Assembly: GCA_963736875.1 (NCBI GenBank)
Contig: CAVTQH010000002.1
Span: 270,663 to 334,662, forward strand
Source of the DNA: Candidatus Amesbacteria bacterium
Lineage (GTDB): Bacteria; Patescibacteriota; Microgenomatia; CAZETR01; Amesbacteraceae
Length of the DNA: 64,000 nucleotides
Direction of reading: 5' to 3'
A model generated the notes under the pieces. The model was not told the origin of the DNA, did no database searches, and saw only the letters and a program-made list of their open reading frames with translations. Every line of letters starts with the position of its first letter. Position 1 is the first letter of the stretch. Shown here piece after piece: positions 5,262 through 20,399 of this stretch. Position numbers and translations under genes: made by a program.

Positions 5262-5346
5262 GCAGGTCTTTATAACAGGAGGGGTTGGCAAGTACCCCTC
5301 CGGAATTGACCTCCCCTCGCTTGTCTGAGCGTCTGTATAATAAAGT

Positions 5347-5670
5347 ATGCTGAGGATAAGGGTAAAGGTTTTAAAAAGCCCGGCGGAAAAAACCATCGGC
5401 CTGATTAGCAGCAAAAAGGCGTATCCGGTATTTTTTAAAACCCGTTGGGGTATCCATACTTTCGGAGTTAAATTCCCCATCGACGTCCTGATTCTGGATT
5501 CAAAATACAAAGTTGTAAAAGCTACAGTAAACCTTCCTCCCAACAGAATTTTTTTATGGCCCCCGGTTTACGAGAATGTTGTTGAATTGCCGACCGGAGA
5601 AGTCCGTAGATTGAAAATCAAAACCGGAGACAAAATATTTTTAATTCCGGGTGATAATCGATCGGCTTAG
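5347..5670 (+). CDS. DUF192 domain protein (COG1430)
   Basis: 'RWGIHTFGVKFPIDVLILD' is the hallmark segment of DUF192. An extended -10 element (TGTATAAT) lies upstream. Confidence 0.6.
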   Translation: MLRIRVKVLKSPAEKTIGLISSKKAYPVFFKTRWGIHTFGVKFPIDVLILDSKYKVVKATVNLPPNRIFLWPPVYENVVELPTGEVRRLKIKTGDKIFLIPGDNRSA

Positions 5671-5711
5671 AACCGTTCTCCGCTTCATTCCAAAGGATAT
5701 GAATACACGAT

Positions 5712-5936
5712 TTACTTAGTCTTCATCTGTTCAGGCTGTAAATTACACACTACTTCAATAATGCTGGGAATATTGGGATTGTTAGTAAAAAAAACCATGG
5801 TACGGTTTTGTATAGTATACATTGCTGCCCTGCGAGCTGCACTTTCGGGAGTCTCCAACGACGGCTGCATCATAATTCCCAACTCTGGTCTATTAGGATT
5901 TTCATAACAAAACCACCATTTTAATCTGTCTTTCAT
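5712..5936 (-). CDS. Hypothetical small protein
   Basis: 74-aa ORF filling an intergenic gap. No recognisable motif. Confidence 0.25.
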   Translation of the reverse strand: MKDRLKWWFCYENPNRPELGIMMQPSLETPESAARRAAMYTIQNRTMVFFTNNPNIPSIIEVVCNLQPEQMKTK

Positions 5937-6027
5937 GGTATTTTCGCCATAATACCACTAAAGGCCTACTTTTTCTTTAATTGGCAGATGGATACGGAAA
6001 TGTCCGGTATAGGTATAATAAAAACTA

Positions 6028-7176
6028 ATGGGGTATCCTGAGAAGACAACAGAAAAAATTATTAAAGATAGCGGAATGGTTCAGGAGGTGAGAAGGAATG
6101 AAAACGTCAAAATACCATCGGTAGTGACATTTTGGGGAATCAGAACGGATTGTGCCGACATCAACCGGCAATTAGAAGGAATGCTTCCCGGTCAGCAAAT
6201 TTCCAGCCCGGGATTTGCATGCGTGTACCGGACCGCGCCGTTTTTAAGTCCGGATGAAGCCGTACGGCAGGAAATGGCTGCCGTCAAAACCAATTTAACG
6301 GCAATATTAGAAGTTCTGGATCCCGAAGATGGAAATCCCGAGGTGCTGAGTGTCGGTTGCGGAACCCCGCCGTTTGAACACTACGGTCAGGCAATTGCTG
6401 AAATGATCGGTTTGGGAGGAATCGAAGTATTGGAATCCAATCTGGCCTGCAATAGCGGAACCCGGGCAATGCAGCGGATACTCGAAGAACCCCGGTATGC
6501 GGGAAAGCGGGTAATGGTGATCGGGATAGAGGGAATGACCAGACTGATTGCCGATCCGAAACCGAATTTGGTAAAAGCCGACCCGTTTTCATTACAGGCA
6601 TTCGGAAACGGTATCGGAGCTGTTAGTTTTATCCCGGAAAGGGATATCAGCCTGGTTGGAAGCGTCAGTTTGTCCGAAGAGGATACCGAAAGGAATCTAG
6701 CTGCCAGACCGACTTATCAGGTAGATCCCAAAGGTCCGTTGATCCAAATTTCCGGAAGTATCGAAAAAACCAAACTTCCGATACCGGAAGAGGAAGAAAA
6801 AATAATCCATATTAAACCCACCGGGACAAGCAAAATGTTTATCAGGGCAGCTGAAGCCACGATAGACAGTCTCCTGACCGGTTACCGGGAACAAATTGAA
6901 GCCGGGACGGTACAGGATAAACCTATCAAACTTGTAGCGGCACATCATCCCAGCCGGGGTGTATGGGACATTCTAATAAAAAAACTGGCAAGAAAAGGGA
7001 TTCCGGCCGGATCCTGTCCGTGGATGGTTCCGGAAGGAAACTTAAGCGGAGCAACCTCTACAGTAGCCCTGTGCCGGTTGTTACCGGCTTTGTCACCCGG
7101 GGACAGAATTATCCTCCTGGGATATGGTGCCGGATGGAACTCCTCGGCAATGATCTGCGACATCGGGGGGAAATAG
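6028..7176 (+). CDS. Thiolase-fold condensing enzyme, divergent KAS III (FabH)/type III PKS-like
   Basis: 'LACNSGTRAM' is a candidate nucleophile Cys in an ACxSG context. 'AAHHPS' is a candidate His. 'GNLSGATS' resembles the FabH Asn in 'GNTSAAS'. About 380 aa. Confidence 0.5.
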   Translation: MGYPEKTTEKIIKDSGMVQEVRRNENVKIPSVVTFWGIRTDCADINRQLEGMLPGQQISSPGFACVYRTAPFLSPDEAVRQEMAAVKTNLTAILEVLDPEDGNPEVLSVGCGTPPFEHYGQAIAEMIGLGGIEVLESNLACNSGTRAMQRILEEPRYAGKRVMVIGIEGMTRLIADPKPNLVKADPFSLQAFGNGIGAVSFIPERDISLVGSVSLSEEDTERNLAARPTYQVDPKGPLIQISGSIEKTKLPIPEEEEKIIHIKPTGTSKMFIRAAEATIDSLLTGYREQIEAGTVQDKPIKLVAAHHPSRGVWDILIKKLARKGIPAGSCPWMVPEGNLSGATSTVALCRLLPALSPGDRIILLGYGAGWNSSAMICDIGGK

Positions 7177-7215
7177 ATATGCGAACTTTCTTTAAAGAAA
7201 CTATAATAGTTATAT

Positions 7216-7614
7216 ATGAATAATTCATATAATTGGTACTCTACACTTATTAAACCTTCATGGTCACCGCCAAGTTGGCTTTTTGGACCGGTGTGGACGT
7301 TTCTTTATATTTTGATTGCCATTTCTTTTGGAAAAGTGTTTTTGATGGGTTTGAAAAAAGAAATTGCTTTTATTGTTGTTTTGCCTTTTATTCTTAATCT
7401 TATTTTTAACTTTGCCTTTACTCCTTTACAGTTTGGATTAAAGAATAATTTATTTGCGGCAATTGATATTCTCCTTGTTTTGGGTACTCTTATCTGGTTG
7501 ATGATTGCTATATATCCTCATGCCAAGTGGATTACATATATTCAAATTCCATATTTACTTTGGGTTTCTTTTGCAAGCATTTTGCAGTTAACTATTACCT
7601 ATTTAAATAAATAA
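7216..7614 (+). CDS. tspO: TspO/MBR family tryptophan-rich sensory protein (short form)
   Basis: 'KPSWSPPSWLFGPVWTFLYILIAIS' is the TspO signature. Five TM helices. Confidence 0.7.
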   Translation: MNNSYNWYSTLIKPSWSPPSWLFGPVWTFLYILIAISFGKVFLMGLKKEIAFIVVLPFILNLIFNFAFTPLQFGLKNNLFAAIDILLVLGTLIWLMIAIYPHAKWITYIQIPYLLWVSFASILQLTITYLNK

Positions 7615-7615
7615 T

Positions 7616-8016
7616 ATGTTTCTAAAACTTTATCTTATTGCACTTCCGGTATTTTTAGCCATCGATATGGTTTGGCTTGATCTATGATTGCCAAGAATTT
7701 TTATGCCAAACAAATTGGATATCTGATGGCTAAAAATCCAAATCTTCTTGCGGCTTTGATTTTTTATCTTATTTTTATTGCAGGACTTATTGTTTTTGTA
7801 ATTACTCCGGCACTTGATAAAAAGATGTGGACACAGGCTCTTCTGGCAGGTGCGTTCTTCGGTCTTGTTACCTATGCAACTTATGACCTTACCAACCTTG
7901 CAACCGTAAAAGATTGGCCGCTTATTATTACAATTGTGGATTTGATTTGGGGGATGGTGCTCTCCGCATCCGTTTCTGTAATCACATACTTTATCGCTCT
8001 TAAATTCGGACTATGA
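7616..8016 (+). CDS. DUF2177 membrane protein, apparent frameshift near 7684
   Basis: N-terminal 23 aa ('MFLKLYLIALPVFLAIDMVWLDL') are in one frame. The rest ('IAKNFYAKQIGYLM...') continues in another frame. Together they resemble DUF2177. Scored as one gene. Confidence 0.4.
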
Positions 8017-8806
8017 ACTATTACTTCGTTCTTGCCCTAACACTTCTCGGTTATATGACTTTCTGGTTTATTGTTTCTGTTATCAAAAAGAGAAATGATG
8101 TTGCAGATATTGCCTGGGGATTGGGATTTGTTCTTATGGCCTGGCTATCATTTTTAATTTCCGGTTTTTCTTTCAAAGCACTTTTGGTCAATGGTTTGGT
8201 AACCATTTGGGGATTACGTTTGGCCTGGCATATTTACAAGCGCAATTTAAAATAAGCACGAAGATTACGGTATGCGGCGTGGCGGAAAGAATGGGGTAAG
8301 TGGTTTTTTCCGCGCTCTTATTTTCAGGTTTATTTACTTCAGGGATTATTTCTTATTTCTGATTATCTCAGCCTGTCATTTTATATTCACCATCAGGTAA
8401 CTGGTGATTTGGGTATATTTGATCTTATTGGCTTATTAGTCTGGATTATCGGTTTTTACTTTGAATCGACCGGTGATACACAGCTCAAAAAATTTATTTC
8501 TAACCCAGCAAATAAGGGAAAACTAATGGAAACCGGTTTATGGCGATATTCAGTCGCCATCCAAATTATTTTGGAGAGGTACTGCAGTGGTGGGGAATAT
8601 TTATCATTGCGCTTTCTCTTCCGGGTTCATTTTTTACAATTATTGGACCTTTAACAATTACAATATTAATTCTTTTTGTTTCGGGTGTTCCGCTGCTTGA
8701 AAAAAAATATGCAGGAAGACCTGATTTTGAAGACTATAAAAAGAGAACCAGTGTATTTATTCCTTTACCCCCGAAGCCCAATGGAATCAAGTACAGTAAT
8801 CGTTAA
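8013..8806 (+). CDS. DUF1295 protein (steroid 5-alpha-reductase/ICMT-like membrane fold), disrupted by an in-frame TAA (8253) and two single-base indels (~8268, ~8560)
   Basis: Joining three frames gives '...[35 protein letters not shown]...[22 protein letters not shown]...[19 protein letters not shown]'. This matches DUF1295 end to end. Confidence 0.55.
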
Positions 8807-9287
8807 CGACAAAATGCAGAGTGATTACGCTTACACCCTGACTGAACCGATTGGTAAAAACTTTGATCCCGGATTTACGCCTGAACTCAGTCCTCAGCAG
8901 ATGCTGTCTCTCGGAGTTTTTGGCGGCAAATACTTAACTGATTGCACTAACGAGTTTCCGAAAAGTTGGTTTACTACCGCTAAACTCTCTCCGAAACAAT
9001 CCAATCCGAAGCTTAATTATTTCAGTGTTCCTGCCAGTCAGTCTCTCTCGGAATGGCGTCGAAAGGGTTGGATTCATCCCGATGACCCCCGTGGATGGTT
9101 TCAGTGGTATTGCCGATACTATATGGGCAGACGGCATGAAGATGACAGCAGACAAATTAAACGTTGGCGTGCGATCAGGCGTCATGTGAGTCAAATTATT
9201 AATAACTGTATGCCTTATGACGAAAGCTGTCGCAGGAAACAACGCCAGGCTCTCCTGCATTGGGCATATGACAGCCGGAAAATATAG
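8779..9287 (+). CDS. Hypothetical protein with W/R-rich motif '[23 protein letters not shown]' (ORF could start at 8676)
   Basis: Open frame of 169-203 aa. No family recognised. Confidence 0.4.
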
Positions 9288-9405
9288 AACTTGAATTTTT
9301 TCATCATTTATCAATTATTTTTTGGAACTCTCTTTCATTTGTTTGCTGGGAGTTTGCCTGCCCGCTTTTGCAGGGAAACGATATTAGAACTTTATAACAT
9401 CAATT

Positions 9406-9843
9406 CTAAAATTTCCCTTGTTTGACTAACTTGATTGACGAAGGACCTTTTTGAATTTTAAGGATTAAATTATCACCTTTTAAAGCATCTTTGACTCTTT
9501 CTAATTGTTTTGAAGAAATGTTATGAGGAATATTCATTAATTCAAAGTACTCTATTTTATCAGCCTCTTCGGTTAGAGTAATTTTTCCACCGATCGGTTC
9601 ACAAATAAAACAAAAGACAAGGTCGTCTTTCTCCGGTTTATAATAAATTCCCTGTAATCTGACAATTTTGACATCCAAACATACTTCTTCTTTAACTTCC
9701 CTGATAACCCCTTCCCAAGGTGATTCGCCTTTTTTCACGCCGCCTCCCGGCAAATTCCATAGGTCATAATCTCTCCTATGACACAAAAGCACCCTGCTTT
9801 GCTTATCAAGTATTATTGCGAAGGCCCCAACAGTAAACATCAT
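9406..9843 (-). CDS. NUDIX hydrolase
   Basis: Nudix box 'GGGVKKGESPWEGVIREVKEEVCL'. Confidence 0.8.
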   Translation of the reverse strand: MMFTVGAFAIILDKQSRVLLCHRRDYDLWNLPGGGVKKGESPWEGVIREVKEEVCLDVKIVRLQGIYYKPEKDDLVFCFICEPIGGKITLTEEADKIEYFELMNIPHNISSKQLERVKDALKGDNLILKIQKGPSSIKLVKQGKF

Positions 9844-9862
9844 CCTATTTTAACAAAATCTT

Positions 9863-9895
9863 TATCTGAGCGTACAGGTCTGGAACCATTCTGCC
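9863..9895. repeat. Intergenic repeat copy a (TTGCTGAGC-N-CTGGAACCATTCTATCC family)
   Basis: 'atctgagcgtacaggtctggaaccattctgcc', 20 nt upstream of the NUDIX start. Matches copies b-f. Confidence 0.6.
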
Positions 9896-10018
9896 GTACC
9901 ATTTTAATCCTAAACCTGTCGAAGGACGGAAGTCACTATTTTAGGGATTATTATCAACGGGTTCTCTTTAGCATCTTTTGCTTAGAAGTTCTGCGTTAAT
10001 TGACTTAGACGGAAGAGT

Positions 10019-11137
10019 ATGGTTACAATGGGCTTGGTGGCAAAAAGAAGTGGAAGAGTAATATCTCACGTTAACTTTCTCGTTTTTTCTTTAGTTGTGT
10101 TAGTTGGTGGGCTCGTAGCCAGCACAATCTTGGTAAGTAAAAATCAACAGCTAAATAGTCAGGCACAGGATGTTACAAGGCTTACCAACGCTGTTTGGTG
10201 GCAGTATTTACCAGTCAAATATAATTCAGCGTGTTCTTACCCAGACAAACCTGCCCCCGATAATTATCAGGCTGTTCATCCCTCCGTACTTTACTTTCCC
10301 GGAGGGTGGAAGGGATATAAATTTTGGATGTCTGTATCTCCTTTTCCTAATCTTGACCCAAAGTGTGAACACCCTCATGTATTTGCCTCCAATACAGGAA
10401 GATACAAAGATTGGATTCAGCCGACAGGTAATCCTGTAGTTCCTAGTGTAGATCCCTACGCTTACGAATACAGCGATGCAGATCTGGTGATGGTCGGGGA
10501 TAAAATGTATATGTTCTATCGTAAAAACACCAAAAACGGACCGGGATATGAAGACGATGACACCGAGTTGTATAAAATATCCCTTTGTTCAACATGTAAT
10601 AGTTGGAGCCCCCCCGAGGCTGTTAAACTTACTAATGTACCTGGGGATCCAATTACTACTGATGCTTATAAAGTTAAACCTAGCGGAATATTTGCCTCTC
10701 CTTCCATTTTGTATGAGAATAATGTCTGGAGAATGTATTATGTCGATACGAAAGCCAAGATAGTAAGATATGCGTCTAGTAGCGATGGGAAAGAGTTCAC
10801 GTGGCAGAGGAACATTTCCGTGAATTATTACCCGCAAGATCCTTGGCACGTCGAAGTCTTCAAGTATAAAACCAGGTACTTTATGCTACTAAACCAGAAC
10901 ATAGAAACAACCAACTCGAATTTGTATCTGCTTACAAACGATAATACGGCAAGTTGGACCAATAAGGGGCCGATATTGTCGCCATCGGCGAATGCATGGG
11001 ATAAATCGGATATTTATCGAGCGTCAGCAGTTGTAGTAGATAATCAATTAATGTTGTGGTATTCGGGTTTTATAGGAAATAATGTGCACACTGGCCTCAT
11101 CAACGACTCCACATGGAATAATTGGTGGTACCGCTAA
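10019..11137 (+). CDS. Secreted beta-propeller glycoside-hydrolase-like protein (GH43/GH32/GH130 superfamily-like)
   Basis: N-terminal TM anchor. Repeated blade-like segments such as 'WRMYYVD' and 'DKSDIYRASAVVVDNQLMLWYSG'. Flanked by repeat copies a and b and opposite in strand to the array. Confidence 0.45.
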   Translation: MVTMGLVAKRSGRVISHVNFLVFSLVVLVGGLVASTILVSKNQQLNSQAQDVTRLTNAVWWQYLPVKYNSACSYPDKPAPDNYQAVHPSVLYFPGGWKGYKFWMSVSPFPNLDPKCEHPHVFASNTGRYKDWIQPTGNPVVPSVDPYAYEYSDADLVMVGDKMYMFYRKNTKNGPGYEDDDTELYKISLCSTCNSWSPPEAVKLTNVPGDPITTDAYKVKPSGIFASPSILYENNVWRMYYVDTKAKIVRYASSSDGKEFTWQRNISVNYYPQDPWHVEVFKYKTRYFMLLNQNIETTNSNLYLLTNDNTASWTNKGPILSPSANAWDKSDIYRASAVVVDNQLMLWYSGFIGNNVHTGLINDSTWNNWWYR

Positions 11138-11186
11138 GAATGTAAATTACAGGTCCGCGAAAAACTGAAGGGGTTGCGAATAAAAT

Positions 11187-11220
11187 TTGCTGAGCATACC
11201 GCTCTAGAACCATTCTATCC
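11187..11220. repeat. Intergenic repeat copy b
   Basis: 'ttgctgagcataccgctctagaaccattctatcc', 105 nt 3' of the methyltransferase stop. Confidence 0.65.
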
Positions 11221-11329
11221 TTTAGTCCGCAGGACGTGAATCTAACGATTGTCTCACAACAAGGCCAAACCTACCTACCGGCAGGCAGGTGAGACAAATG
11301 AGATGATACTAGAAGTAAACAGTGTAGAT

Positions 11330-12097
11330 CTACAATTTTCGACATTTAAAAATGAACCTATCTGAAAAATTAATAAAAAAGGGAAGTTTGCTTAAACAGA
11401 ATGAATTCTTATCTCCGTTCCTATTTATTCTAACTCCGTTACCCATGACTTTAATATCACTGTAGCCGGCGTATTTTAGAGTTGTCAGAAGCGAATGAAT
11501 AGAAAAAAAAGAAATATGCCCCGATGCGACATCCGTTAACGGGCGCGTGGTTTGATAAGACTCTCCCATGCCTGTTAAAAGCCCGATAACGTCATGAATT
11601 TGAGCAATATTTGGAACTGACCCCAGAAAATATCCACCATGCTTGATTAAAGGATTTATGACCTTTTTAATAAATACCCCAGGGGTTCTGATATGTTCCA
11701 GAATTTCAGCTGCAACAACAAAATCGGCTTTTGGAAGTTTATCAATTTTATCCAGGTCTTTTTCAACGTCCACTGAGATGACTCTATCAAAACACTGCCT
11801 GTCTAATCCAACCTGCAACACCTCCAAAGAAACATCGATTCCAATTTTATATAAATTCGCCAAAGATTTAACTTGATTTTCCAATTCACCCTCTCCGCAA
11901 CCTAAATTAATCATTATCATTTTTTTGTTTATGCTTTTATCAACAATTTCTCGAATAATTTCAGAAATAAGCGTAAGCCTCTTTTTATGAAGTTTGTTAT
12001 CGAGATAACTATATACTTTATTGTTTTGTTTTTTGAATAATATTGCCTCGAAATGTTTTTCAGGCTGTCCATAAACTTCGGGTTTTATGATTGACAT
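11330..12097 (-). CDS. Class I SAM-dependent methyltransferase
   Basis: Motif I 'MINLGCGEGELE'. Post-I acidic residue. 'AAEILEHI' motif. Confidence 0.75.
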   Translation of the reverse strand: MSIIKPEVYGQPEKHFEAILFKKQNNKVYSYLDNKLHKKRLTLISEIIREIVDKSINKKMIMINLGCGEGELENQVKSLANLYKIGIDVSLEVLQVGLDRQCFDRVISVDVEKDLDKIDKLPKADFVVAAEILEHIRTPGVFIKKVINPLIKHGGYFLGSVPNIAQIHDVIGLLTGMGESYQTTRPLTDVASGHISFFSIHSLLTTLKYAGYSDIKVMGNGVRINRNGDKNSFCLSKLPFFINFSDRFIFKCRKL

Positions 12098-12281
12098 AAA
12101 ATTATTGTTCAGTAGCTCAACTAACCAGTCGTAACCATACCAAAAGGTAGAGATAAATTTGATATCTATTATATATATCTTTCCTATTTTTTCTGGGGGA
12201 CTAGTTGTCTTTCGCTAAGTTTAGGATCACCACGGAACACGACCACATAATGGCATGCAATTCCGAAAGCTTGGCGAAGGA

Positions 12282-12315
12282 TTGCTGAGCAGTACGATCT
12301 GGAACCATTTTATCC
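12282..12315. repeat. Intergenic repeat copy c
   Basis: 'ttgctgagcagtacgatctggaaccattttatcc', directly abutting the ASCH-gene stop codon (TAA on minus). Confidence 0.65.
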
Positions 12316-12657
12316 TTATATTCTTTTCTCAACTTCTATTGCTACTACACCATACTGTTTTTCTTGTTCAGGAGTATAGAATTGTCTATACACTCTAATT
12401 CCTTGATAAATTGAATCTACGTCCGGTAATAACTCTTTAATAGATTCACTGGTTAGCATGTCTTTAATCGATTTATATATTGTTACCCTTTTTACTACGG
12501 TCTCTACACTATCTGTTTCTTTGTTATCATAAACGGTAATTTGATCTCCAGGCTTGATATTGCGATACTTACCTTTTCTTATCCTTGCCTCGACAGTTTT
12601 CTGCCCATTCTTAAGTAAGGTGAAATACGGTTCTGCTCTATGATTGTGGTAATTCAT
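12316..12657 (-). CDS. ASCH (PUA-like) domain protein
   Basis: 'PYFTLLKNGQKTVEARIRKGKY' matches the ASCH N-terminal motif. 113 aa. Confidence 0.6.
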   Translation of the reverse strand: MNYHNHRAEPYFTLLKNGQKTVEARIRKGKYRNIKPGDQITVYDNKETDSVETVVKRVTIYKSIKDMLTSESIKELLPDVDSIYQGIRVYRQFYTPEQEKQYGVVAIEVEKRI

Positions 12658-12662
12658 AAAAG

Positions 12663-12696
12663 TTGCTGAGCGGGCCGGTCTGGGACCCTCCTATCC
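12663..12696. repeat. Intergenic repeat copy d
   Basis: 'ttgctgagcgggccggtctgggaccctcctatcc' occupies the entire 39-nt spacer between the GNAT stop and the ASCH start. Confidence 0.65.
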
Positions 12697-13134
12697 TTAT
12701 AGTTTCTTAATAAAATATGATTTTTCTCCCTCAGTTTTATATTCAGTGAAACCGTTATCTAAAACAAATTTATACATACCTGGGAATTTTACTTTGTAAG
12801 TATTTAGAGTCAGTTGATCAAACATTTTCTCCTTTGCAAATTTTTCTATTTCCTCATACATCATTTTCCAAATTCCAAACTTCCGATATTCTTTTAATAC
12901 CCCAACATTCCAAATATGAAATTTCCCTTCTTTTGGATAACAGATAGAAAATCCCACCATCTTTTTGTCATCCCAGGCATTAACTAACAAACCGCCGCTA
13001 TTTATCTTATTCAACCAATCATTTTTGTCGTGATATTTTTGGAGCTCTTCTGGAGACGGCTCAAATACTTGATTTGACACTTCTAAAGCTTTTTCTAACT
13101 CTTTTAGTTGGTTTATGTGTAATGTGATATTCAT
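12697..13134 (-). CDS. GNAT family N-acetyltransferase (longer ORF to 13161 overlaps the repeat; start at MNITLH preferred)
   Basis: Motif A 'VGVLKEYRKFGIWKMMYEEIEKFAKE'. Confidence 0.7.
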   Translation of the reverse strand: MNITLHINQLKELEKALEVSNQVFEPSPEELQKYHDKNDWLNKINSGGLLVNAWDDKKMVGFSICYPKEGKFHIWNVGVLKEYRKFGIWKMMYEEIEKFAKEKMFDQLTLNTYKVKFPGMYKFVLDNGFTEYKTEGEKSYFIKKL

Positions 13135-13168
13135 CTGCTGAACATGTCGGTCTTGAACCATTCGATCC
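13135..13168. repeat. Intergenic repeat copy e
   Basis: 'ctgctgaacatgtcggtcttgaaccattcgatcc', between the LOG-like stop and the GNAT start. Confidence 0.65.
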
Positions 13169-13176
13169 CATAACCT

Positions 13177-13710
13177 CTACAAATATTTCTCAAGTTCTCT
13201 AATAGAATTAAAAAACTCTATTTTGGATTTTTCCTTGTGTCCTTCTTTTAGAAATTCCTTAATTGTTTTATTAGTAATCCCACCAGATGCTTCTAAAACA
13301 TAAATGTCTTTAGCGATGCCAGCCATAATCGTTATTTCGTACATAGTACCAACTCGTCCACCAATAACAATTGCCATATCGACATCAAAACATAGTTTCA
13401 GAGATCGGAGGTATAGATCAATTTTAGAAAAATTGTTACAGACGTATTTTTCTTGGAAAATTACCTCTGAGTATTTAGATAAATCTGTTTGGTAAAATTT
13501 CTTGTGATCTTCAAGATTTTTACCCGCACAGTAGGCTATAGCTTTGCCGCCTGAAGAAATGGCTGAGACGGCAACTAAGTCCGGGTAACCAGAAACACCC
13601 CCAGTAACGATGATGTGTCCTTTTAAAGCAAGTAATCTACCTAATTCTTGAGATTTTTTAAAAAAATCTCCATTGTCAGGATTACTTGATCCGATGATGG
13701 CTATTTTCAT
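13177..13710 (-). CDS. LOG/TIGR00725-family Rossmann protein (SLOG-like; lysine-decarboxylase-like)
   Basis: 'IAIIGSS' N-terminus and 'IGGRVGTMYEI', corresponding to LOG 'GGxGTxxE'. Confidence 0.6.
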   Translation of the reverse strand: MKIAIIGSSNPDNGDFFKKSQELGRLLALKGHIIVTGGVSGYPDLVAVSAISSGGKAIAYCAGKNLEDHKKFYQTDLSKYSEVIFQEKYVCNNFSKIDLYLRSLKLCFDVDMAIVIGGRVGTMYEITIMAGIAKDIYVLEASGGITNKTIKEFLKEGHKEKSKIEFFNSIRELEKYL

Positions 13711-13730
13711 AAATTTAATTATAGTTTAAT

Positions 13731-13764
13731 TTGCTGAGCACCACAGCCTCGAACCGTTCTAGCC
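13731..13764. repeat. Intergenic repeat copy f
   Basis: 'ttgctgagcaccacagcctcgaaccgttctagcc', 20 nt upstream of the LOG-like start and 50 nt past the MazG-like stop. A degenerate seventh copy may lie at ~14228-14260. Confidence 0.6.
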
Positions 13765-13814
13765 CATAACTAATTTAATATACGGATCAAGGATTTTTCC
13801 ACTTTGACTATTTA

Positions 13815-14168
13815 TTAAACTCCCTTAGTGCGAAGGTATTCGCTGGCGTCTCTTAAGGCTTTGAAGTGGGCGTCTTCCAAATCAATCTCGTACAAATCTG
13901 CAATTCGCATGACCATAAATAAAATATCAGCTAATTCATCCCCAATTTTTTCTTTGTTTGCCTGATATTTAGGATTGTCTTTGTCTCGACATGCAGGGTA
14001 ATAACCCTCTTGCACCATCACCAATGAAGAAAGATCACCAATCTGCTTACTTAGTTCAATCATCGACCCATCCACACCCCATTGCTTACCTTCTATTTTT
14101 TCGAACCTTTTAATTATCGCTCTTGCCTTATTAACCGCTTCCTCAAATGTAGTTTTATTCATATTCAT
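13815..14168 (-). CDS. MazG-like nucleotide pyrophosphohydrolase (all-alpha NTP-PPase)
   Basis: 'EKIGDELADILFMVMRIADLYEIDLE' is the typical EExxE/D metal-binding helix pair of the MazG/HisE family. Confidence 0.7.
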   Translation of the reverse strand: MNMNKTTFEEAVNKARAIIKRFEKIEGKQWGVDGSMIELSKQIGDLSSLVMVQEGYYPACRDKDNPKYQANKEKIGDELADILFMVMRIADLYEIDLEDAHFKALRDASEYLRTKGV

Positions 14169-14305
14169 AGCTTAACATAATCTTGAATTGTATGGCTGGC
14201 GCTTTATCGAAAAATCCGAACGTCAATCTGCTAGCTCACCCGCCGCGCCTCCGTTATTTTTTTGCGCGCGCAAAGTGACGGGACAGCACAAAAAAGCCAA
14301 TGCCA

Positions 14306-14335
14306 TTGTACCAAACTTGATTGTAAATCTATAAT
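14306..14335 (+). promoter_or_regulatory. Sigma70-like promoter for the Tmk-like gene (TTGTAC-18-TATAAT)
   Basis: -35 TTGTAC at 14306-11. -10 TATAAT at 14330-35, 32 nt before the ATG at 14368. Confidence 0.4.
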
Positions 14336-14367
14336 AGTATAGAGCAATACAAAGGCAAAAATGATTT

Positions 14368-15042
14368 ATGTCTAACGTTAATTATGGAAATAGGGGGTTG
14401 CTTATCGCAGTAGAGGGTGTTGATGGTGCCGGTAAATCAACTTTGATCAAAGCTTTAAGCAGTCACTTACAGAGTAAGGGGATATCAAACGCAGTATTTA
14501 AGAATCATGTTGGGTTAGAATCACCATTTTGGGCATCATATAAAAAAAGCAGGGAACAACTTAAAAATAATGGGGTTAAAATTTCAAGCGATGCAGCAAG
14601 AACTATACAAACTGCTGAATTTTTGTCATTTGCCAGAAACGTTTTACCGGGATTGTTGAGCACTCATAGAGTTGTTCTTGCAGATAGATACATGGTAGCT
14701 AAAAGAGTTGATTCCCGGGTAAGCCTAGAAGGTAATGTCGGTTCTGCAGAAATATTACTTAATGTAGCCGACGATATTTATTTACCGGATCAGATTTTTT
14801 ACCTTAGAGTTCCGGCAAAAACAGCCTGGAAAAGAATATCGAATAAAGAAATAAAAGACTGGAAAGAGAATTATGAAATTATTTCAAAAGCAGTGGTTTA
14901 TTATGACCAAATTGTTTCAACAATTCCTGACGTGGAAATTATAAACGCAGATAAAGATGAAAAAAACGTTTTTAATGTAGCTATTACTGTTTTTTGGGAC
15001 AAGTTTTCTCGCCAGTTAGAGATTATGAAAAAGACTCTCTAG
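14368..15042 (+). CDS. Thymidylate-kinase-like (dNMP kinase family) P-loop protein, divergent
   Basis: P-loop 'IAVEGVDGAGKSTL' and 'VLADRYMVA' (Tmk DRY motif). The lid region is atypical. Confidence 0.55.
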   Translation: MSNVNYGNRGLLIAVEGVDGAGKSTLIKALSSHLQSKGISNAVFKNHVGLESPFWASYKKSREQLKNNGVKISSDAARTIQTAEFLSFARNVLPGLLSTHRVVLADRYMVAKRVDSRVSLEGNVGSAEILLNVADDIYLPDQIFYLRVPAKTAWKRISNKEIKDWKENYEIISKAVVYYDQIVSTIPDVEIINADKDEKNVFNVAITVFWDKFSRQLEIMKKTL

Positions 15043-15687
15043 GGTCAGGTTGTCTTTAATACTGATTCGAGACAGCCTCTTACTTTTCGCATAATAACTC
15101 AAAAACAAATCCGAATTTGGGGTGTCTCTTAACTGAAGTGCGGTCAATAGCCGCATCTTTTCCCTAGGCAGAATCGTTTTAAAATTCTCGAGAAAATAGC
15201 TTTTTAGGTATAGTAACGATTGGACTCCGTTAGCATAGTCTTGCTTAAATAATCGAACACTGTAAGTTGCGAGTATATTCTCTAAGCTGAAATATCGTTT
15301 ATAGACTTCTCTTATATCATATTCGAATTGTTGATATATGACATGATCATTTCTGACAAGAAAAGGAAAAATGTCTACGAAATATTCTCCACCCGGTCCT
15401 AAAAAGTTATTCGGATTGGAATCCAATCCGTATTTATCAAACGTTAATGATTTAATTCGGTTTACAATGTGTCCTGAAAATAAGATTGGTTTTTCAGCAA
15501 TTCGTTCCTGATTTATGACAATGTATCCGTCTTGGAAAGTTAGGTCTGTTTGAGGTGTTCGAAAACCTGCAGTTTCTAACCATTTAAAATAATATGGTAA
15601 ATGTACAGATATATATTTAAATAAATATTTTGTGGCCTCAACCTTTTTTACAAATCTATTTTTATTGACTGAAACATCACACCTCAT
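15016..15687 (-). CDS. Hypothetical protein, last gene of the 4-gene overlapping operon
   Basis: 223 aa. Start overlaps the nucleotidyltransferase stop by 4 nt. No motif recognised. Confidence 0.4.
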   Translation of the reverse strand: MRCDVSVNKNRFVKKVEATKYLFKYISVHLPYYFKWLETAGFRTPQTDLTFQDGYIVINQERIAEKPILFSGHIVNRIKSLTFDKYGLDSNPNNFLGPGGEYFVDIFPFLVRNDHVIYQQFEYDIREVYKRYFSLENILATYSVRLFKQDYANGVQSLLYLKSYFLENFKTILPREKMRLLTALQLRDTPNSDLFLSYYAKSKRLSRISIKDNLTLESLFHNL

Positions 15688-16706
15688 AGTAAATCAATAG
15701 GAATTAAGTAATGATCGTTGTTTTGCATAAATAGAAAATCACCATGATTGACTGTTACCTTAGTGCCTCTGAATAAGTATGTATTTCCAAACACGTGGTT
15801 ATCATCACCCATCCCTTGATGCGCCCATGAGAAGCTAATAGCATTCAGGTGCTTATCACCCATAACAAGATCCCATGTTTTTGGGAAATTATAACAATCA
15901 GCTGCCGATAGTACCTGGCATTCACTCACAACTTCTTCAATTTTCCAATCCTGATGCATACCACTAAGGAAGTCTCTTATAGGGGTATCGTTATGGTCGA
16001 TGTTTAAACATTGTAAGCTTGTAGATACACCTTCCGGACTGATCCACCTCATTCTTTTGTTAGCAAGGTACCGGCCGGCTAGAACGGGGATGTTGAACTT
16101 TCTGGAATAATGAACAGCGTATTCAGCGTCTTTACCCGTCTCTTTTGTAGTCACGTACCCGCTACTAATAAAGGTTTCATTTACAAGATCCAAAAAGTCC
16201 GTCTTTTGTGTTGGTTTAACCCAAGCGATCAAATCCAAATCCGAGTCGACCGAATTCAATCCCGCTTGGTGAGAACCATAAACTCCAAGGTTGTAGTCTC
16301 CTGCAAAATCAGCCTTCAATAATTTTTCTTTAATACCGTTGGCTAATCGTTTAGAGGCGGAAGAAATAGCGGTATTGGATTCATAGTAAGTTGAATACCA
16401 TACATATTCCTGATTGTCTTGTAGAAACAAGAGAGGCTTATTGTAAACATCAATAAGTAATTCGCCGATTTCAACAAAACTATTTCGTGACACGTCCTCG
16501 TGAATCAGTCTGTTTCGTCGGTATATTTTACGGTCAATACCCGATACACGATTTCCGTTCTCATCAAGGGAATAACTCCGGTTTACGGGTAGAATTGATC
16601 CTTGTTGTGTATGCAATCTGTAGGCACCTTTAAGATGGTAAATGTTTCCGTTAGGGGATTTTATGGCAGAAAACTCTGGAAAAGGTGAAATCTCATACTC
16701 CGTCAT
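15684..16706 (-). CDS. Pol-beta superfamily nucleotidyltransferase (ANT/KNTase/MenT/CD-NTase-like) with large C-terminal domain
   Basis: 'GVYGSHQAGLNSVDSDLDLIAW' fits the GS-x9-11-DxD minimal nucleotidyltransferase motif. 340 aa. Overlaps both neighbours. Confidence 0.6.
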   Translation of the reverse strand: MTEYEISPFPEFSAIKSPNGNIYHLKGAYRLHTQQGSILPVNRSYSLDENGNRVSGIDRKIYRRNRLIHEDVSRNSFVEIGELLIDVYNKPLLFLQDNQEYVWYSTYYESNTAISSASKRLANGIKEKLLKADFAGDYNLGVYGSHQAGLNSVDSDLDLIAWVKPTQKTDFLDLVNETFISSGYVTTKETGKDAEYAVHYSRKFNIPVLAGRYLANKRMRWISPEGVSTSLQCLNIDHNDTPIRDFLSGMHQDWKIEEVVSECQVLSAADCYNFPKTWDLVMGDKHLNAISFSWAHQGMGDDNHVFGNTYLFRGTKVTVNHGDFLFMQNNDHYLIPIDLL

Positions 16707-17665
16707 ATTACGATTCTTCTCCCCAAATAATGGGGCAGAATCAATTGATATTCTTCGTCTTTAAAAAACAATTTGAAAAGATAGTTACTATCTTCTCCAT
16801 CAACATTTATAGGAGAAATATGTTGCAAAATTACTTGTTTGACTTGAGATTTTTTGAAAATATCTAATATATCCCATCCACTGAGATGATATTTTGAGTG
16901 CTTGTTGTATTCCAGTGCATTAATGTTCACGACGGCTAAATCTGCATTCTTAAAGAAATCTGCAATGTATTGGTGTTTTTCTTCTATTGATATTAAGTTA
17001 CCAATTGTCTCGTTAGAGTTGAAAACTCCTGTGTCGGTTTTGATTTTAATTGCGTATCCCGAATCGGATACATAACCTATAATCTTTTTGTTTACTTCTA
17101 ATTTAAAGCCAAATGTATCAGGACAACTGTGAAATAGTGATAAGAAACTAATCTTGTACTCACTTAGGATTTTATCGTTATAAACCATCTGTGAATCGGA
17201 AAGTAAATTCAATGTAACATGCTTGGCATTAGAAAGAGCTGTTTTATAGTAATCCGGAACTTTAGTATCGAAAGCGTCCTTGGAACTAAATACTGTAATT
17301 TCTTTCGATTTATTTTTTAGAATTTTTTCTAAAAAGATTTGTAGAGAAGCAGTATGGTCAATGTGATTATGAGTTATTATCAGCACCCGGATATCGTTAA
17401 CGGATAAACCTGTTGATGTAAACCTGGAATAGAAATCAACCCCGGGATCGACTACTATAAGTTTTCCTTTTAAATTTATGATGTAACCATTGAAATACCA
17501 TTGATCAATTTGCAGTTCAAGCGAAGTTTCAAATAATAATTTAGGTATTATTATTTCGTGTCCGGATATTTTCTCCGTTATCTTCCCAGACTTAAAAGAT
17601 TCCTTTAAAATCTGCTCTTTCTTATACAAACCCCTTGAAATTATGATTAAATTATTCTTGTCCAT
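16703..17665 (-). CDS. Metallo-beta-lactamase-fold hydrolase
   Basis: 'LIITHNHIDH' (HxHxDH), upstream 'VVDPG' Asp and downstream His/Asp motifs. 320 aa. Confidence 0.65.
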   Translation of the reverse strand: MDKNNLIIISRGLYKKEQILKESFKSGKITEKISGHEIIIPKLLFETSLELQIDQWYFNGYIINLKGKLIVVDPGVDFYSRFTSTGLSVNDIRVLIITHNHIDHTASLQIFLEKILKNKSKEITVFSSKDAFDTKVPDYYKTALSNAKHVTLNLLSDSQMVYNDKILSEYKISFLSLFHSCPDTFGFKLEVNKKIIGYVSDSGYAIKIKTDTGVFNSNETIGNLISIEEKHQYIADFFKNADLAVVNINALEYNKHSKYHLSGWDILDIFKKSQVKQVILQHISPINVDGEDSNYLFKLFFKDEEYQLILPHYLGRRIVI

Positions 17666-18254
17666 TATTCTCCAACTTCTTAGTTAAAAGGTAATCCAAG
17701 TGTAACACAACATTCCTATAAGTATTACTTATTTTAGCCTCATTATTTATTAGTATATATTTTTTATTAGCCTCGTATGTAATGTGTTTCAATTTATTAA
17801 TTGTTAGGACCCGATTAAAGTGGGTTTTTGATTTATTCCCTCTTTTTATAGCCAGAGATGGTTTGATTTCAAGAATTACTCCCCCAAGCACCTTAGGATT
17901 GTTAAACAATCTGTGGGTATTCACCTGGACACCGTCGATTATGATATTAACCCCGGAATTGGTATATGAATTTATAATAATTTCTATTAACCCCATAAAT
18001 ATATCAGACGATTTCTTTCCTTCAAAATTTTCTAATTCTGTTGAGTTAATATCCGGTCGAAAAAAACGCACCATTTTACTTGCCACTCCCAAGTTAATTG
18101 ACTGATAGAAGTTATAATCACGAATTAATTTTCTCGTGATGGTCGTTTTTCCTGAGGAATTATTTCCTGTTACAACGAAGATAGCCGGTTTACCTAGTCT
18201 ATTAAGTTGTTTAATCTTTCCGTTGATATTTATCACCAATGACCATTTTATCAC
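17652..18254 (-). CDS. P-loop kinase, chloramphenicol-phosphotransferase/zeta-toxin/AAA_33-like (GTG start)
   Basis: Walker A 'VVTGNNSSGKTTITRKL'. 'NIIIDGV' Walker-B-like strand. About 200 aa. First gene of the overlapping operon. Confidence 0.55.
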   Translation of the reverse strand: MIKWSLVININGKIKQLNRLGKPAIFVVTGNNSSGKTTITRKLIRDYNFYQSINLGVASKMVRFFRPDINSTELENFEGKKSSDIFMGLIEIIINSYTNSGVNIIIDGVQVNTHRLFNNPKVLGGVILEIKPSLAIKRGNKSKTHFNRVLTINKLKHITYEANKKYILINNEAKISNTYRNVVLHLDYLLTKKLENNGQE

Positions 18255-18496
18255 AAGACCTATAGTTCGTCTAGAGTTTCTATATCCTCACCCACCCGGA
18301 ATTAAATTTGTGGCGACGACCCCATCCTCGTTCGCAGGGTTCCCTAGGGGGACCCTCGCCAAAGTCCGGGACGATCTAGGTTCTTTTTACAATCCCTTCC
18401 GGAGTAATGGGTAGTTTAGTTAGTCAGCTCCCTGCGGCGGGGTGTCCGCTTTCCACCCCCGCCTTCTTTATTCTTGCCCCATCCAGTACCCTACGG
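18255..18496 (-). ncRNA. GC-rich structured non-coding region between tRNA-Gln and the kinase operon (candidate leader/riboswitch/sRNA; identity unknown)
   Basis: About 60 % GC, flanked by ~33 % GC genes. Strong hairpins 'GGCGGGGGTGgaaagcggaCACCCCGCC' and 'AGGGTCCCCCTAGGGAACCCT'. No ORF. Confidence 0.2.
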
Positions 18497-18567
18497 CTGG
18501 GGGACAGGGATTCGAACCCCGATAGTCAGGTCCAGAACCTGAAGTCCTACCGTTAGACGATCCCCCA
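18497..18567 (-). tRNA. tRNA-Gln (anticodon CUG)
   Basis: Minus-strand cloverleaf: acceptor UGGGGGA/UCCCCCA (U1:A72 as in tRNA-Gln), anticodon loop UUCUGGA, T-arm CGGGGUUCGAAUCCCUG. No encoded CCA. Confidence 0.8.
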
Positions 18568-18642
18568 ATATCTTTCTCGCAATACGACCCCAATTTTACC
18601 CTCCCCGGCTACAGCTGTAAATCTATTTATGTTTTTAGCGGT

Positions 18643-19695
18643 TTAACCCGTAAGCTTTGGTATCCAGGGAATTTTATGTACCAGGAAGGCAACAGAAAAC
18701 GAAATAACTGCTGTTAATCCGAAAAACAACGGATCAAACCAAACCTGGGTAACCGTCAGGGCAGGGGAGCCGGAGAACAGATATTTACTAAAAAGTTTCC
18801 ATATGATTTCCAGCACCCACACATGTACAAAAAATACAAAAAATGACCTGCCTGACAATCTTGTCAGAATATTTTCTTTGGTTTTTAAATTGGTAAACCA
18901 ATAATATCCGCCGGCAAACAGAGCCAGCGTGTAGACCGCAATACTCGGCCTCCATTGGGAATAAAAATCGACATAATTCCAGGAAGTCAGATACCGGCTG
19001 CGTCCTTCATAGAATATATAACCGGCCAATACAGCAGTAATTACCGGCCAGATATATTTTAAGCGGCGGACCAAAGTCAAAATCCGGTCTGTCTGGTGGC
19101 AGGCCACCATCCCCAGCACAAAAAATAAATAATTTAATACAGTGATTCTTAACGGATCCGGCATCACAATGGCATGCCGGTAATAATCGGCATACAGAAG
19201 TCCCGCTTCCGCTCCGGCTAAAATTACCAGTACCCACCATTTGGATATCCATCTGTAGAACTTATGCAGCAGGGGAAATATCAGATAAAGAAGCAGAAGC
19301 GGGGGAATAAAATACAGCTGATACGAGGAATTGCCTCCGATTAAAGTCTGCATAAACCCCATATCATGTTGGGTATAGACAAAATGATAATAGATTAAGC
19401 TCCAGAAGACGTACGGTATAAGAATTTTACCGGTGCGTTTTTTCAGATAGGTAAAATATCCGGTTCCGTCCCGGTGGGAAAGTTCCAGCACAAAACCGGA
19501 AATCAGAAAGAACAGCGGGACTGCAAACCGGCAGACCTGATTTAAAAAAAGCGACAGAGGGACTTCCGGCAGGTTCATATATACCGACTCGATGGTTCTG
19601 CTGGTGGTATGGATAAGGATAACCGCGAGGATTGCGGCAGTTCTTAATGCATCCATTGCTATGTCCCTGCCCGGCAATAATATTTCCTTCACCAT
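18643..19695 (-). CDS. Acyltransferase family 3 (OatA-like) membrane protein
   Basis: 'MDALRTAAILAVILIHTTS' N-terminus typical of PF01757. Ten TM helices. Confidence 0.75.
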   Translation of the reverse strand: MVKEILLPGRDIAMDALRTAAILAVILIHTTSRTIESVYMNLPEVPLSLFLNQVCRFAVPLFFLISGFVLELSHRDGTGYFTYLKKRTGKILIPYVFWSLIYYHFVYTQHDMGFMQTLIGGNSSYQLYFIPPLLLLYLIFPLLHKFYRWISKWWVLVILAGAEAGLLYADYYRHAIVMPDPLRITVLNYLFFVLGMVACHQTDRILTLVRRLKYIWPVITAVLAGYIFYEGRSRYLTSWNYVDFYSQWRPSIAVYTLALFAGGYYWFTNLKTKENILTRLSGRSFFVFFVHVWVLEIIWKLFSKYLFSGSPALTVTQVWFDPLFFGLTAVISFSVAFLVHKIPWIPKLTG

Positions 19696-19762: not shown

Positions 19763-20380
19763 ATGAATAAAAAACTTGGTTTGATAATCGTCGCAGTCAT
19801 CCTGATAGCTCTGGGTTTGGGCGGATTTCTTTTATTAAGTAAAGGCGGTAAAACCGCTCCCGTTACTTCCGGGACTACCCCGGAGCCTTCATCTTCCGCA
19901 CAAAAAATGTCTTTAAGGTCGCTGCTTTCATTCACCGGCAGTCAAATGTGTAATTTTTCAGACATTGAGTCCACCACCAGTGGTCAAATCTATATGTCCG
20001 CCGGCCGGGTCCGGGGTGATTTTTCCACCATAGTCGAAGGAAATGTAGTCAAATCTCATATGTATACCGACGGTCGGGAAATGTACTTCTGGATGGACGG
20101 AAGCGCCTCCGGTTTTAAAAGCAGCCTGACCGTTACTCCGTCACCGGAAGCCGGAAAACCTGCAAACGAAAATGTCGATCTGGACCGCCAGTCGGATTTT
20201 GATTGCGGTCCCTGGACTGCGGATGACTCCCTGTTTGTTTTACCGGACGGGGTAAAATTCTCGGATCTAAGTACTCTGATGGCAGTCCCTACGGGTGGTC
20301 AGGCATCCCCCTGCCAGACTTGTGACCAATTGACCGGTGATACGGCAGTCCAATGTAAGAAGGCACTCAATTGCCCGTAG
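19763..20380 (+). CDS. Hypothetical secreted/membrane-anchored Cys-containing protein (ORF extends to 19592 but ATG at 19763 gives a signal anchor)
   Basis: 'MNKKLGLIIVAVILIALGLGGFLLL' anchor. Four C-terminal Cys residues. Confidence 0.45.
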   Translation: MNKKLGLIIVAVILIALGLGGFLLLSKGGKTAPVTSGTTPEPSSSAQKMSLRSLLSFTGSQMCNFSDIESTTSGQIYMSAGRVRGDFSTIVEGNVVKSHMYTDGREMYFWMDGSASGFKSSLTVTPSPEAGKPANENVDLDRQSDFDCGPWTADDSLFVLPDGVKFSDLSTLMAVPTGGQASPCQTCDQLTGDTAVQCKKALNCP

Positions 20381-20399
20381 CGGTATACTTAAGATAGTG

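Follow-up and report, generated by a model that had tools for sequence, protein, structure and literature searches.

Members of the Patescibacteria, or candidate phyla radiation (CPR), have tiny genomes and depend on hosts, and the ways in which they gain and lose accessory genes are poorly known. The question takes a concrete form in Candidatus Amesbacteria, where an AT-rich stretch of about 11 kb ends at a tRNA-Gln gene: is this stretch acquired DNA, and if so, how was it assembled beside a tRNA? We analysed it within a window of 64,000 nt (contig CAVTQH010000002.1, positions 270,663 to 334,662; all coordinates below are those of the window unless a locus is named) and compared it with loci from other assemblies, which are designated by L and a number. 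The stretch is a genuine accessory island, acquired horizontally, beside tRNA-Gln. We consider it likely that the island grew additively, seeded by the tRNA-Gln gene, from units bounded by a short direct repeat that we call R. The positions of all features are collected in Table 1.

Two-changepoint maximum-likelihood segmentation of the G+C content (GC) delimits a low-GC block at 7180-18280, with a GC of 0.365 inside and 0.460 outside and a log-likelihood gain of 168.7. A profile in 1-kb windows agrees, with values of 0.317-0.421 across 7001-18500 and mostly 0.42-0.51 elsewhere; to the left of the island it dips to 0.39 at 2500-3500 and 5000-6000. An earlier note on this DNA, made from the sequence alone, had located the drop at ~7.2-18.25 kb, which is nearly exact, and had described it as low-to-mid 30s against 45-50 %, which somewhat overstates it. 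Tetranucleotide usage, normalized for mononucleotide content and compared with the core in 3-kb windows, gave correlations of 0.87-0.95 outside and 0.59-0.75 for windows lying wholly within ~8-19 kb, and the island sub-segments 7183-8810, 9401-14300 and 14301-18260 each fell below all equal-sized core segments in tetranucleotide signature. Uniform composition is therefore ruled out by the sliding GC and the tetranucleotide analysis alike. The GC of third codon positions (GC3) is 0.27-0.41 in the genes of the island and 0.42-0.54 in flanking genes, with a value of 0.46 for one open reading frame (ORF) that is not a confirmed gene (the unidentified ORF of Table 1).

The nearest relative is known from short contigs, of which L002 and L003 carry the acyltransferase gene of the right flank (90 % identical in protein) and L006 the KAS III-like gene of the left flank (87 %); L003 and L006 come from the same ENA sample. 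BLASTN colinearity with this relative, at 84-88 % DNA identity, ends on the left at 7182, six nucleotides beyond the KAS III stop codon, and on the right with the final tRNA base, 18496. On the right, L002 and L003 are colinear with the window down to 18496 and then continue into unrelated AT-rich DNA; tRNA-Gln and the acyltransferase gene are neighbours there too. On the left, L006 carries beyond the break 5.5 kb of DNA of 30-42 % GC encoding a DUF1801 protein, a polysaccharide deacetylase, a methyltransferase and small ORFs, with degenerate R-like repeats between its own small genes. By this loss of homology, the boundary on the left, indistinct on sequence alone according to the earlier note, is fixed at 7182/7183. 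The gene set is not conserved at the locus in the nearest relative, and together with the non-uniform composition this supports the reading as an accessory island. Deviant composition, insertion beside a tRNA and different content in a close relative are features by which genomic islands are classically recognized; the mobility genes that are a further such feature are absent. Homologues of the flanking proteins come from sources named Saccharimonadales, Roizmanbacteria, Amesbacteria and Woesebacteria, among others, within the Patescibacteria, and a scan of GTDB genomes with the acyltransferase found no close relative.

Six copies of R lie between the cassettes of the island, most of which hold a single gene. 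R is a direct repeat of ~40 nt which reads TTGCTGAGC-N7-TCTGGAACC-ATTCTATCC on the plus strand, and all six copies are on one strand and inside the island (0.03 expected by chance). A position weight matrix (PWM) built from copies outside the window scores them at 25.6-48.3, compared with a maximum of 13.9 for shuffled sequence. The copies sit in short gaps between minus-strand cassette genes and delimit units of 381-1324 bp; at loci elsewhere, units span 226-6076 bp. The R consensus, TTGCTGAGCAGGTCGGTCTAGAACCTTTCGAKCCCATAAC, has two strongly conserved blocks (block 1 and block 2) around the variable N7 segment. Neither strand of the six window copies forms a hairpin, and the same is true of seven L006 segments, all of which fold as single-stranded DNA no better than shuffles. 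A direct repeat of the tRNA-Gln 3' half, which had been proposed as something to look for, was not found: searches with exact k-mers (at least 14 nt) and with 20-40-mers allowing up to six mismatches revealed no tRNA-derived flanking repeats, and the island holds instead the six diverged, internal R copies, which resemble a tRNA 3' end and align with some tRNA-Gln genes. Two other identities for R were tried and rejected. As a mini-ORF or leader peptide it fails in that the ATG present in some copies is lost in others or followed at once by a stop codon, and as a sigma-70 promoter it fails at the shortest gaps, which leave no room, R ending 5 nt before the next ATG.

R is not confined to this genome. 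Scanning metagenome contigs exactly with a degenerate R pattern returned 105 stretches, for which a rough estimate predicts ~15 chance matches. Approximately 44 of the 105 carry either the extended consensus (...CCCATAAC, bases that lie outside the search pattern) or two to four copies on the same strand, and it is on such features outside the search pattern, not on the chance estimate, that the argument for R elsewhere rests. The GC of these ~44 stretches is 0.33-0.42, except for the two-copy locus L091 (0.48), and single matches in high-GC contigs look like chance matches. Wherever a tRNA lies near R at the metagenome loci, the nearest one is tRNA-Gln (15 of 15 loci; anticodon CTG in eleven and TTG in four, representing 10 distinct sequences). 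R is always on the 3' side of the tRNA and, taken on the strand opposite to that written here, is colinear with it in the direction of the tRNA. The rule also holds in the window and in L011 (Candidatus Woesebacteria) and L012, the latter two having been fetched for another reason. In the R-bearing loci Rfam finds only tRNAs, no base-pair covariation was detected among 100 unique R copies, and searching the literature for the motif yielded nothing but primer sequences of no relation to it.

The association with tRNA-Gln may extend to the origin of the repeat. Homologues of a 237-aa cassette gene follow the 3' end of tRNA-Gln in L036 and an R copy in L067, and the sequences upstream of the two genes align through GGTTC...CAGCAAAT, as ATGAGATCG--GGGTTCGAATCCCTGCTGGGCAGCAAAT and ATGGGCTCGAAAGGTTCTAGACCGACCTGCTCAGCAAAT. 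In this correspondence, block 2 matches the T-loop region, N7 matches the part of the T-stem and acceptor that varies between tRNAs, and block 1 matches ...CAGC followed by AA. Alignment of the R consensus with tRNA-Gln genes of the L036 and L011 types scored 28 and 24, respectively, where shuffles gave a mean of 11.9, a 95th percentile of 16 and a maximum of 24. These similarities are suggestive, though not proof, of a derivation of R from the T-arm and acceptor end of tRNA-Gln. In a small sample of 14 distinct lineages, about six have AA directly after the tRNA ...CAGC, which recreates CAGCAA, the end of R block 1; this observation fits a role for the tRNA end as recombination partner. A derivation from the anticodon arm, in which GGTTCTGGACC of the window tRNA resembles GGTTCCAGACC of R, was considered and rejected, as the anticodon arms of tRNA-Gln differ at other R arrays.

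Comparison between contigs identifies R as a recombination junction. L054 and L021 are 100 % identical over 742 nt up to TTGCTGAG, where L054 switches to an R copy that lies 1762 bp farther along in L021; it thus lacks three whole cassettes of L021, TspO-DUF2177 included. L024, L048 and L050, from a single groundwater sample, have a common left flank up to the end of TTGCTGAGC; past that point each has an N7 segment, a block 2 sequence and a cassette of its own. Twelve locus pairs are identical in R and its right flank and have unrelated left flanks, the identity stopping at the edge of block 1, and the R copies of the window show the same junction pattern when compared with L053, L058, L085 and L116. 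N7 and block 2 stay with one particular side in every case and are never found with the other, which speaks for a fixed point of crossover and against general homologous recombination. Exchange by homology only would use the 11-bp block 2 as often as the 9-bp block 1; this is not seen, and the crossover is therefore probably fixed in block 1. The cassettes are also found in other contexts: the DNA of window 7215-8047 (TspO-DUF2177) is 86.7 % identical to L021 883-1713, with R copies there at 735 and 1737.

We propose that small units lacking an integrase, usually of one gene, were inserted repeatedly and site-specifically at the 3' end of tRNA-Gln. In the direction of the tRNA, each unit would consist of a gene followed by the R body ...ATGGGATCGAAAGGTTCTAGACC-N7-GCTCAGCAA, so that R closes the unit. 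Strand exchange would occur in the terminal block GCTCAGCAA, and new units would therefore enter next to the tRNA, push older units outward and leave direct copies of R between genes. The geometry would be that of an integron, but with a double-stranded site free of hairpins. The unit nearest the tRNA carries a module of P-loop, metallo-beta-lactamase (MBL)-fold and nucleotidyltransferase (NTase) genes, which is mobile between tRNA-flanking islands of other Patescibacteria as well, whereas the farthest units (NUDIX, DUF1295 and TspO-DUF2177) would have lost their R sites and be partly decaying. We speculate further, with slightly less than even confidence, that the Patescibacteria possess a previously undescribed gene-capture platform analogous to the integron. 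Its sites would be unstructured ~40-bp sequences that mimic tRNA-Gln at its T-arm and acceptor end, a recombinase encoded elsewhere would insert cassettes at the tRNA-Gln 3' end or at an existing R and excise them, and distant CPR lineages would trade the resulting arrays. Replacement of the whole block by way of the conserved flanks may contribute as well. The data directly show the composition of the island, its boundaries and variability, the role of R as a junction and its association with tRNA-Gln; an origin of R in a tRNA, the insertion order and a recombinase that acts in trans belong to the proposed model.

Several observations weigh against this proposal. The two flanks of the relative lie on separate contigs, and their linkage in its genome is deduced. 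Pfam found no integrase, transposase or phage gene among the island ORFs of at least 70 aa and ~40 other ORFs of the window. The PWM detects no seventh R copy in the window, and none at the left boundary or adjoining the tRNA. R has no dyad symmetry or hairpin, which is unusual in comparison with known tyrosine or serine recombinase sites, and no excised circles or empty sites were observed directly. The 3' half of the window's own tRNA-Gln matches R with a score of only 14, below the shuffle 95th percentile of 16, and scores for other tRNAs, at 10-22, are no lower than for tRNA-Gln, since the T-loop is common to every tRNA; the main basis for an origin of R in a tRNA is consequently the tRNA-Gln genes of the L036 and L011 types. 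Lastly, among 117 ORFs near R arrays searched in bulk and 20 searched individually, recombinase sequences were detected in one lineage only. There (L107 1914-3185, also L058 and L093), the gene for a large serine recombinase is broken in two: the first ORF encodes the Resolvase N-terminal domain, the second the Recombinase and zinc-ribbon domains. The split gene sits within an R array, ~3.3 kb from tRNA-Gln, and no other recombinase was seen near any R array; ten further candidate ORFs proved to be ordinary enzymes.

Additive growth beside a tRNA has a precedent in Prochlorococcus, with its tRNA-seeded islands and tycheposons (Hackl et al., bioRxiv 10.1101/2020.12.28.424599); in the model proposed there, units integrate beside a tRNA and push older, decaying material outward. 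Like those islands, the present one abuts the 3' end of a specific tRNA, contains between its units direct repeats with a suggestive likeness to a partial tRNA, and differs in content between close relatives. A tycheposon, however, spans several kilobases and encodes a tyrosine or serine recombinase of its own, generally along with a replication module, whereas the units here are mostly single genes with neither. The tycheposon repeat is a copy of the host's own tRNA, whereas R is a motif conserved across distant hosts. The hosts here are Patescibacteria and the tRNA is tRNA-Gln, which is not among the seven Prochlorococcus targets. By analogy, the growth of the island is best read as matching the Prochlorococcus accretion model, except for its integrase-less, mostly single-gene units and its site conserved across lineages.

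The locus is a defined hotspot at the tRNA-Gln 3' end, where R-bounded cassettes turn over between close relatives, and site and rule are found again in many unrelated metagenomic genomes. Should a dedicated recombinase act on R, the system would represent a second route to integron-like cassette capture, apparently independent of integrons, in which the site is double-stranded and tRNA-like. It would also make gene transfer among these uncultivated bacteria directly testable, with R as a tag to search for, count and follow in population data. The cassettes themselves point to the functions that are traded: nucleotide-sanitizing enzymes, small modification enzymes and the P-loop/MBL/NTase module.

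Of the other explanations, the one that survives best is that a flexible island is swapped as a block by homologous recombination in its conserved flanks after DNA uptake, with no mechanical role for R. Flanks 84-88 % identical to those of the relative, between which everything differs, are what such an exchange would leave, no recombinase is present, and the window encodes type IV pilus or competence-like proteins (T2SSE, T2SSF). Block exchange does not explain, however, why R stands at every cassette boundary, why whole-cassette variants have their junctions in one 9-bp block, or why R arrays in unrelated genomes always lie 3' of tRNA-Gln, and we consider it unlikely as an account of the locus.

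A regulatory role for R is harder to sustain. Were R an operator, untranslated region or processing site of co-regulated accessory genes, and the low GC the result of relaxed selection on a native region, it would be natural to find R within 10-30 nt of a stop or start codon, as in about a third of cases, with a fixed polarity relative to most cassette genes and a three-base spacing at some less conserved positions. Yet R marks the exact divergence points of otherwise identical contigs, and genes occur in both orientations relative to it, as unk372, TspO-DUF2177 and a comparison of the module between L011 and the window illustrate. The region has a foreign tetranucleotide signature, a near-identical cassette is found in another genomic context, and R shows neither RNA structure nor covariation. 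We regard this explanation as improbable.

Classical tRNA-associated genomic islands (reviewed in PMC2704930) resemble the locus in their deviant GC, their position beside a tRNA, their accessory content and their variability among relatives. The pseudogene in low-GC DNA next to the tRNA would also suit a single integration event in tRNA-Gln, by an island that brought its own integrase and later lost it or by a prophage or satellite of which a remnant is left. This is very doubtful, since there is no integrase or transposase, no pair of direct repeats around the whole island and no tRNA repeat at its far end. Excisionase, replication and phage structural or packaging genes are absent from the island, where PHROGs matches are to generic kinase, hydrolase, NUDIX and ASCH families only, and the NTase family was not found in IMG/VR. 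Moreover, the island is a mosaic of independent units that occur separately elsewhere. In a search for known defence systems, PADLOC gave weak, generic matches only.

The likeness to chromosomal integrons is closer in layout than in substance. A canonical integron array without integrase (CALIN), with R in the role of attC, would have short, functionally diverse cassettes, mostly in one orientation and separated by a repeat, the body of which stays with the upstream gene while the crossover falls at its far end, and insertion at one anchor; all of this has a counterpart here, the single anchor by deduction. However, neither strand of R nor the L006 variants form the attC hairpin, their folding energies being no better than those of shuffles. 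There is no inverted R''/R' core, no covariation among the 100 copies, and no intI (Phage_integrase) in the 64 kb. The anchor is a tRNA end rather than attI, integrons are not tied to tRNA-Gln, and some cassettes are multi-gene or inverted. We therefore attach scarcely any likelihood to a CALIN.

Xer-dependent modules, such as the pdif modules of Acinetobacter plasmids and the IMEX elements, are also small and integrase-less, are bounded by a short conserved site and presumably depend on the host recombinase. Their dif-like sites are 11-6-11 imperfect palindromes of 28 bp, and pdif arrays alternate in orientation. R differs in having no dyad symmetry and in that all copies are direct; on inspection of the consensus, neither of its blocks TTGCTGAGC and GGTCTAGAACC is the reverse complement of the other.

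An assembly or binning chimera, in which the AT-rich block is foreign to this genome, is of almost negligible probability: the window does come from a metagenome-assembled contig, and the breaks of a Logan contig fall within the tRNA and at a copy of R, but the Logan assembly of run ERR12040022 (L001, which may share the reads of the metagenome-assembled genome) reproduces 12246-18524, including 30 nt of the tRNA, at 99.97 % identity, the block is internal to a 441-kb contig (441,639 bp), and numerous unrelated assemblies show tRNA-Gln, cassettes and R arranged in the same way.

The four-gene module next to the tRNA is also found in other Patescibacteria, at differing locations. In L011 it lies between tRNA-Gln and an R copy, inverted relative to the window. 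L012 has a shorter version in the same position, with the P-loop and NTase genes, in which homologues of the MBL and 223-aa proteins were not detected. In L008 and L009 the module lies directly 3' of tRNA-Asn and is followed by IS3 fragments, and in L007 and L010 (Candidatus Amesbacteria) it lies beside tRNA-Gly, together with a dTMP-kinase-like gene 57 % identical to that of the window. The IS3-family transposase fragments of L008 (12060-15779; HTH_Tnp_1, rve, rve_2) come right after the module, with an HTH_17 gene and a 548-aa ORF without Pfam match further on. The GC of the module is 33-40 % in hosts of 45-50 % GC and matches the host in low-GC genomes, a pattern that fits transfer from low-GC donors. 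Scanning GTDB genomes with the NTase-family alignment yielded three loci only.

The 340-aa protein of the module belongs, on the basis of motif and fold, to the Pol-beta superfamily of nucleotidyltransferases, with a core like that of terminal nucleotidyltransferases. Residues G144, S145, D156 and D158 of its GS...DxD motif are invariant in 28 homologues, and in its AlphaFold2 model (pLDDT, the predicted local confidence, 94.8) beta-rich OB-like domains flank the central domain. The core of the model aligns with CutA, Tailor, Cid1, poly(A) polymerase and CdnB with probabilities of 0.96-1.0 and E values of 5e-3 to 5e-2, at TM-scores of ~0.2 that are low because of the extra beta-rich domains. 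The family of the 223-aa protein is tiny, with 32 representatives among 1.84 billion proteins. For the MBL protein and its homologues, precomputed Pfam annotation lists PF23023 (Anti-Pycsar Apyc1); our own hmmscan of the MBL protein gave only Lactamase_B families at E <=0.01, and NCBIfam weak matches to RNase Z and cyclic-nucleotide phosphodiesterase. Folds and neighbouring genes are the only guide to the function of the module; on that basis, the candidates are nucleotide salvage and the processing or repair of RNA 3' ends. Nucleotide 'house-cleaning' genes (NUDIX, Ham1/ITPase, MazG-like and dTMP-kinase-like) recur beside it, at L013 4025-6036, L007 14993-18247 and window 9406-14168, which hints at a shared theme of nucleotide or RNA metabolism.

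Table 1. Features of the island, its flanks and the R copies in the 64-kb window.
Feature	Position	Strand	Description	Evidence
Island	7183..18494		11.3 kb of AT-rich accessory DNA, from the KAS III-like gene to the tRNA-Gln 3' end	GC segmentation, tetranucleotides, homology breakpoints
KAS III-like gene	6028..7176	+	Conserved left flank, outside the island	Pfam ACP_syn_III_C; 87 % protein and 88 % DNA identity to L006
TspO and DUF2177	7216-7614, 7684-8016	+	Two-gene cassette, 7216..8016	Pfam
DUF1295 pseudogene	8013..8806	+	Three ORFs	Matches to PF06966 profile positions 1-63, 118-164, 163-235
Unidentified ORF	8676-9287		Not a confirmed gene	
NUDIX hydrolase	9406..9843	-	Distal to the last R copy	Pfam NUDIX, E = 5.6e-19
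R copy 1 (weakest)	9863..9902	-	Plus strand TATCTGAGC-GTACAGG-TCTGGAACC; in tRNA direction colinear with T-arm and 3' end	PWM 25.6
unk372	10019..11137	+	GH43/GH130-like beta-propeller, 372 aa	PDB sequence matches 6n1a (2.4e-11), 7fip (1e-4); no Pfam match
R copy 2	11187..11226	-	With flanking GTCCTGCGGAC hairpin	88 % identical to the tRNA-proximal R of L058, L093, L107
SAM-dependent methyltransferase	11330..12097	-	Cassette	Pfam Methyltransf_23, E = 2.6e-11
R copy 3	12282..12321	-	Exact match to the search pattern	PWM 43.2
ASCH-domain gene	12316..12657	-	Cassette	Pfam ASCH, E = 6.2e-14
R copy 4	12663..12702	-		Pattern search and PWM
GNAT acetyltransferase	12697..13161	-	Cassette	Pfam Acetyltransf_1
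R copy 5	13135..13174	-		88 % identical over 43 nt to R in L053
SLOG/LOG-like (LDcluster4)	13177..13710	-	Cassette	Pfam PF18306, E = 5.1e-16
R copy 6	13731..13770	-	Nearest the tRNA	Pattern search and PWM
Weakly MazG-like gene	13815..14168	-		Pfam MazG, E = 0.002, below the curated cut-off
dTMP-kinase-like gene	14368..15042	+	Convergent with the operon	Pfam Thymidylate_kin, E = 9.9e-15
Four-gene module	15016..18254	-		Pfam; same gene order in L007-L015
223-aa protein	15016-15687	-	No function assigned	
OB-flanked nucleotidyltransferase	15684-16706	-	340 aa	
MBL-fold hydrolase	16703-17665	-		
P-loop kinase-like	17652-18254	-		
GC-rich spacer	18255..18494	-	53 % GC, between module and tRNA, inside AT-rich DNA	
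tRNA-Gln(CTG)	18495..18567	-	Island anchor; 3' end faces the island	ARAGORN and Rfam; kept beside the acyltransferase gene in L002/L003
Acyl_transf_3 gene	18643..19695	-	Conserved right flank, outside the island	Pfam; 90 % protein identity to L002/L003

The gene content of the island is as the earlier note had listed it: a TspO paralogue, DUF2177, DUF1295, NUDIX, the cassette array and the P-loop/MBL/NTase operon. Of the two genes that it had thought decayed, DUF1295 is indeed broken into three ORFs. DUF2177, in contrast, is intact, and neither it nor the 132-aa TspO is decayed, because another contig carries both as intact genes of the same short form (88 % and 95 % amino-acid identity, respectively). 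The island TspO is 37 % identical to the core TspO at 20337-20867 and is thus not a recent duplicate. The spacer before the tRNA is GC-rich as described (53 % over the 234 nt at 18261-18494), but its presumed structure found no support: its folding gave z-scores of +0.27 and -0.29 against shuffled sequence, and it has no Rfam match. We therefore rejected a structured RNA here. The spacer is specific to this island, being absent from L002 and from the other module loci, and might be a remnant of an earlier junction.

Within the R-delimited array (9863-13770), unk372 is the only cassette gene that points against the direction of the tRNA. The true start of the GNAT acetyltransferase is probably an in-frame ATG at 13134, as the listed start at 13161 falls inside R copy 5. 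A GC-rich patch, ...CCGCCGCGCCTCCGTTATTTTTTTGCGCGCGCAAAGTGACGGG..., lies in the intergenic region at 14169-14367, from which the MazG-like and dTMP-kinase-like genes diverge. Proteins with a Fic/DOC domain are encoded both in the core of the window (58161-59114) and as an R-array cassette (L058 548-1621).

Outside the island, the flanks differ from those of the relative in two respects. On the right, the relative has a DsbB gene (141 aa; L002 1188-1613) between the acyltransferase gene and the next gene, where the window has ~16 nt (19674-19690), a clean one-gene indel. On the left, the flank is rearranged: the order in the relative is DUF192, cupredoxin, KAS III (L006 230-2266), and that in window 3427-7176 is cupredoxin, an alpha/beta hydrolase (minus strand, 3960-4931), DUF192 and KAS III.

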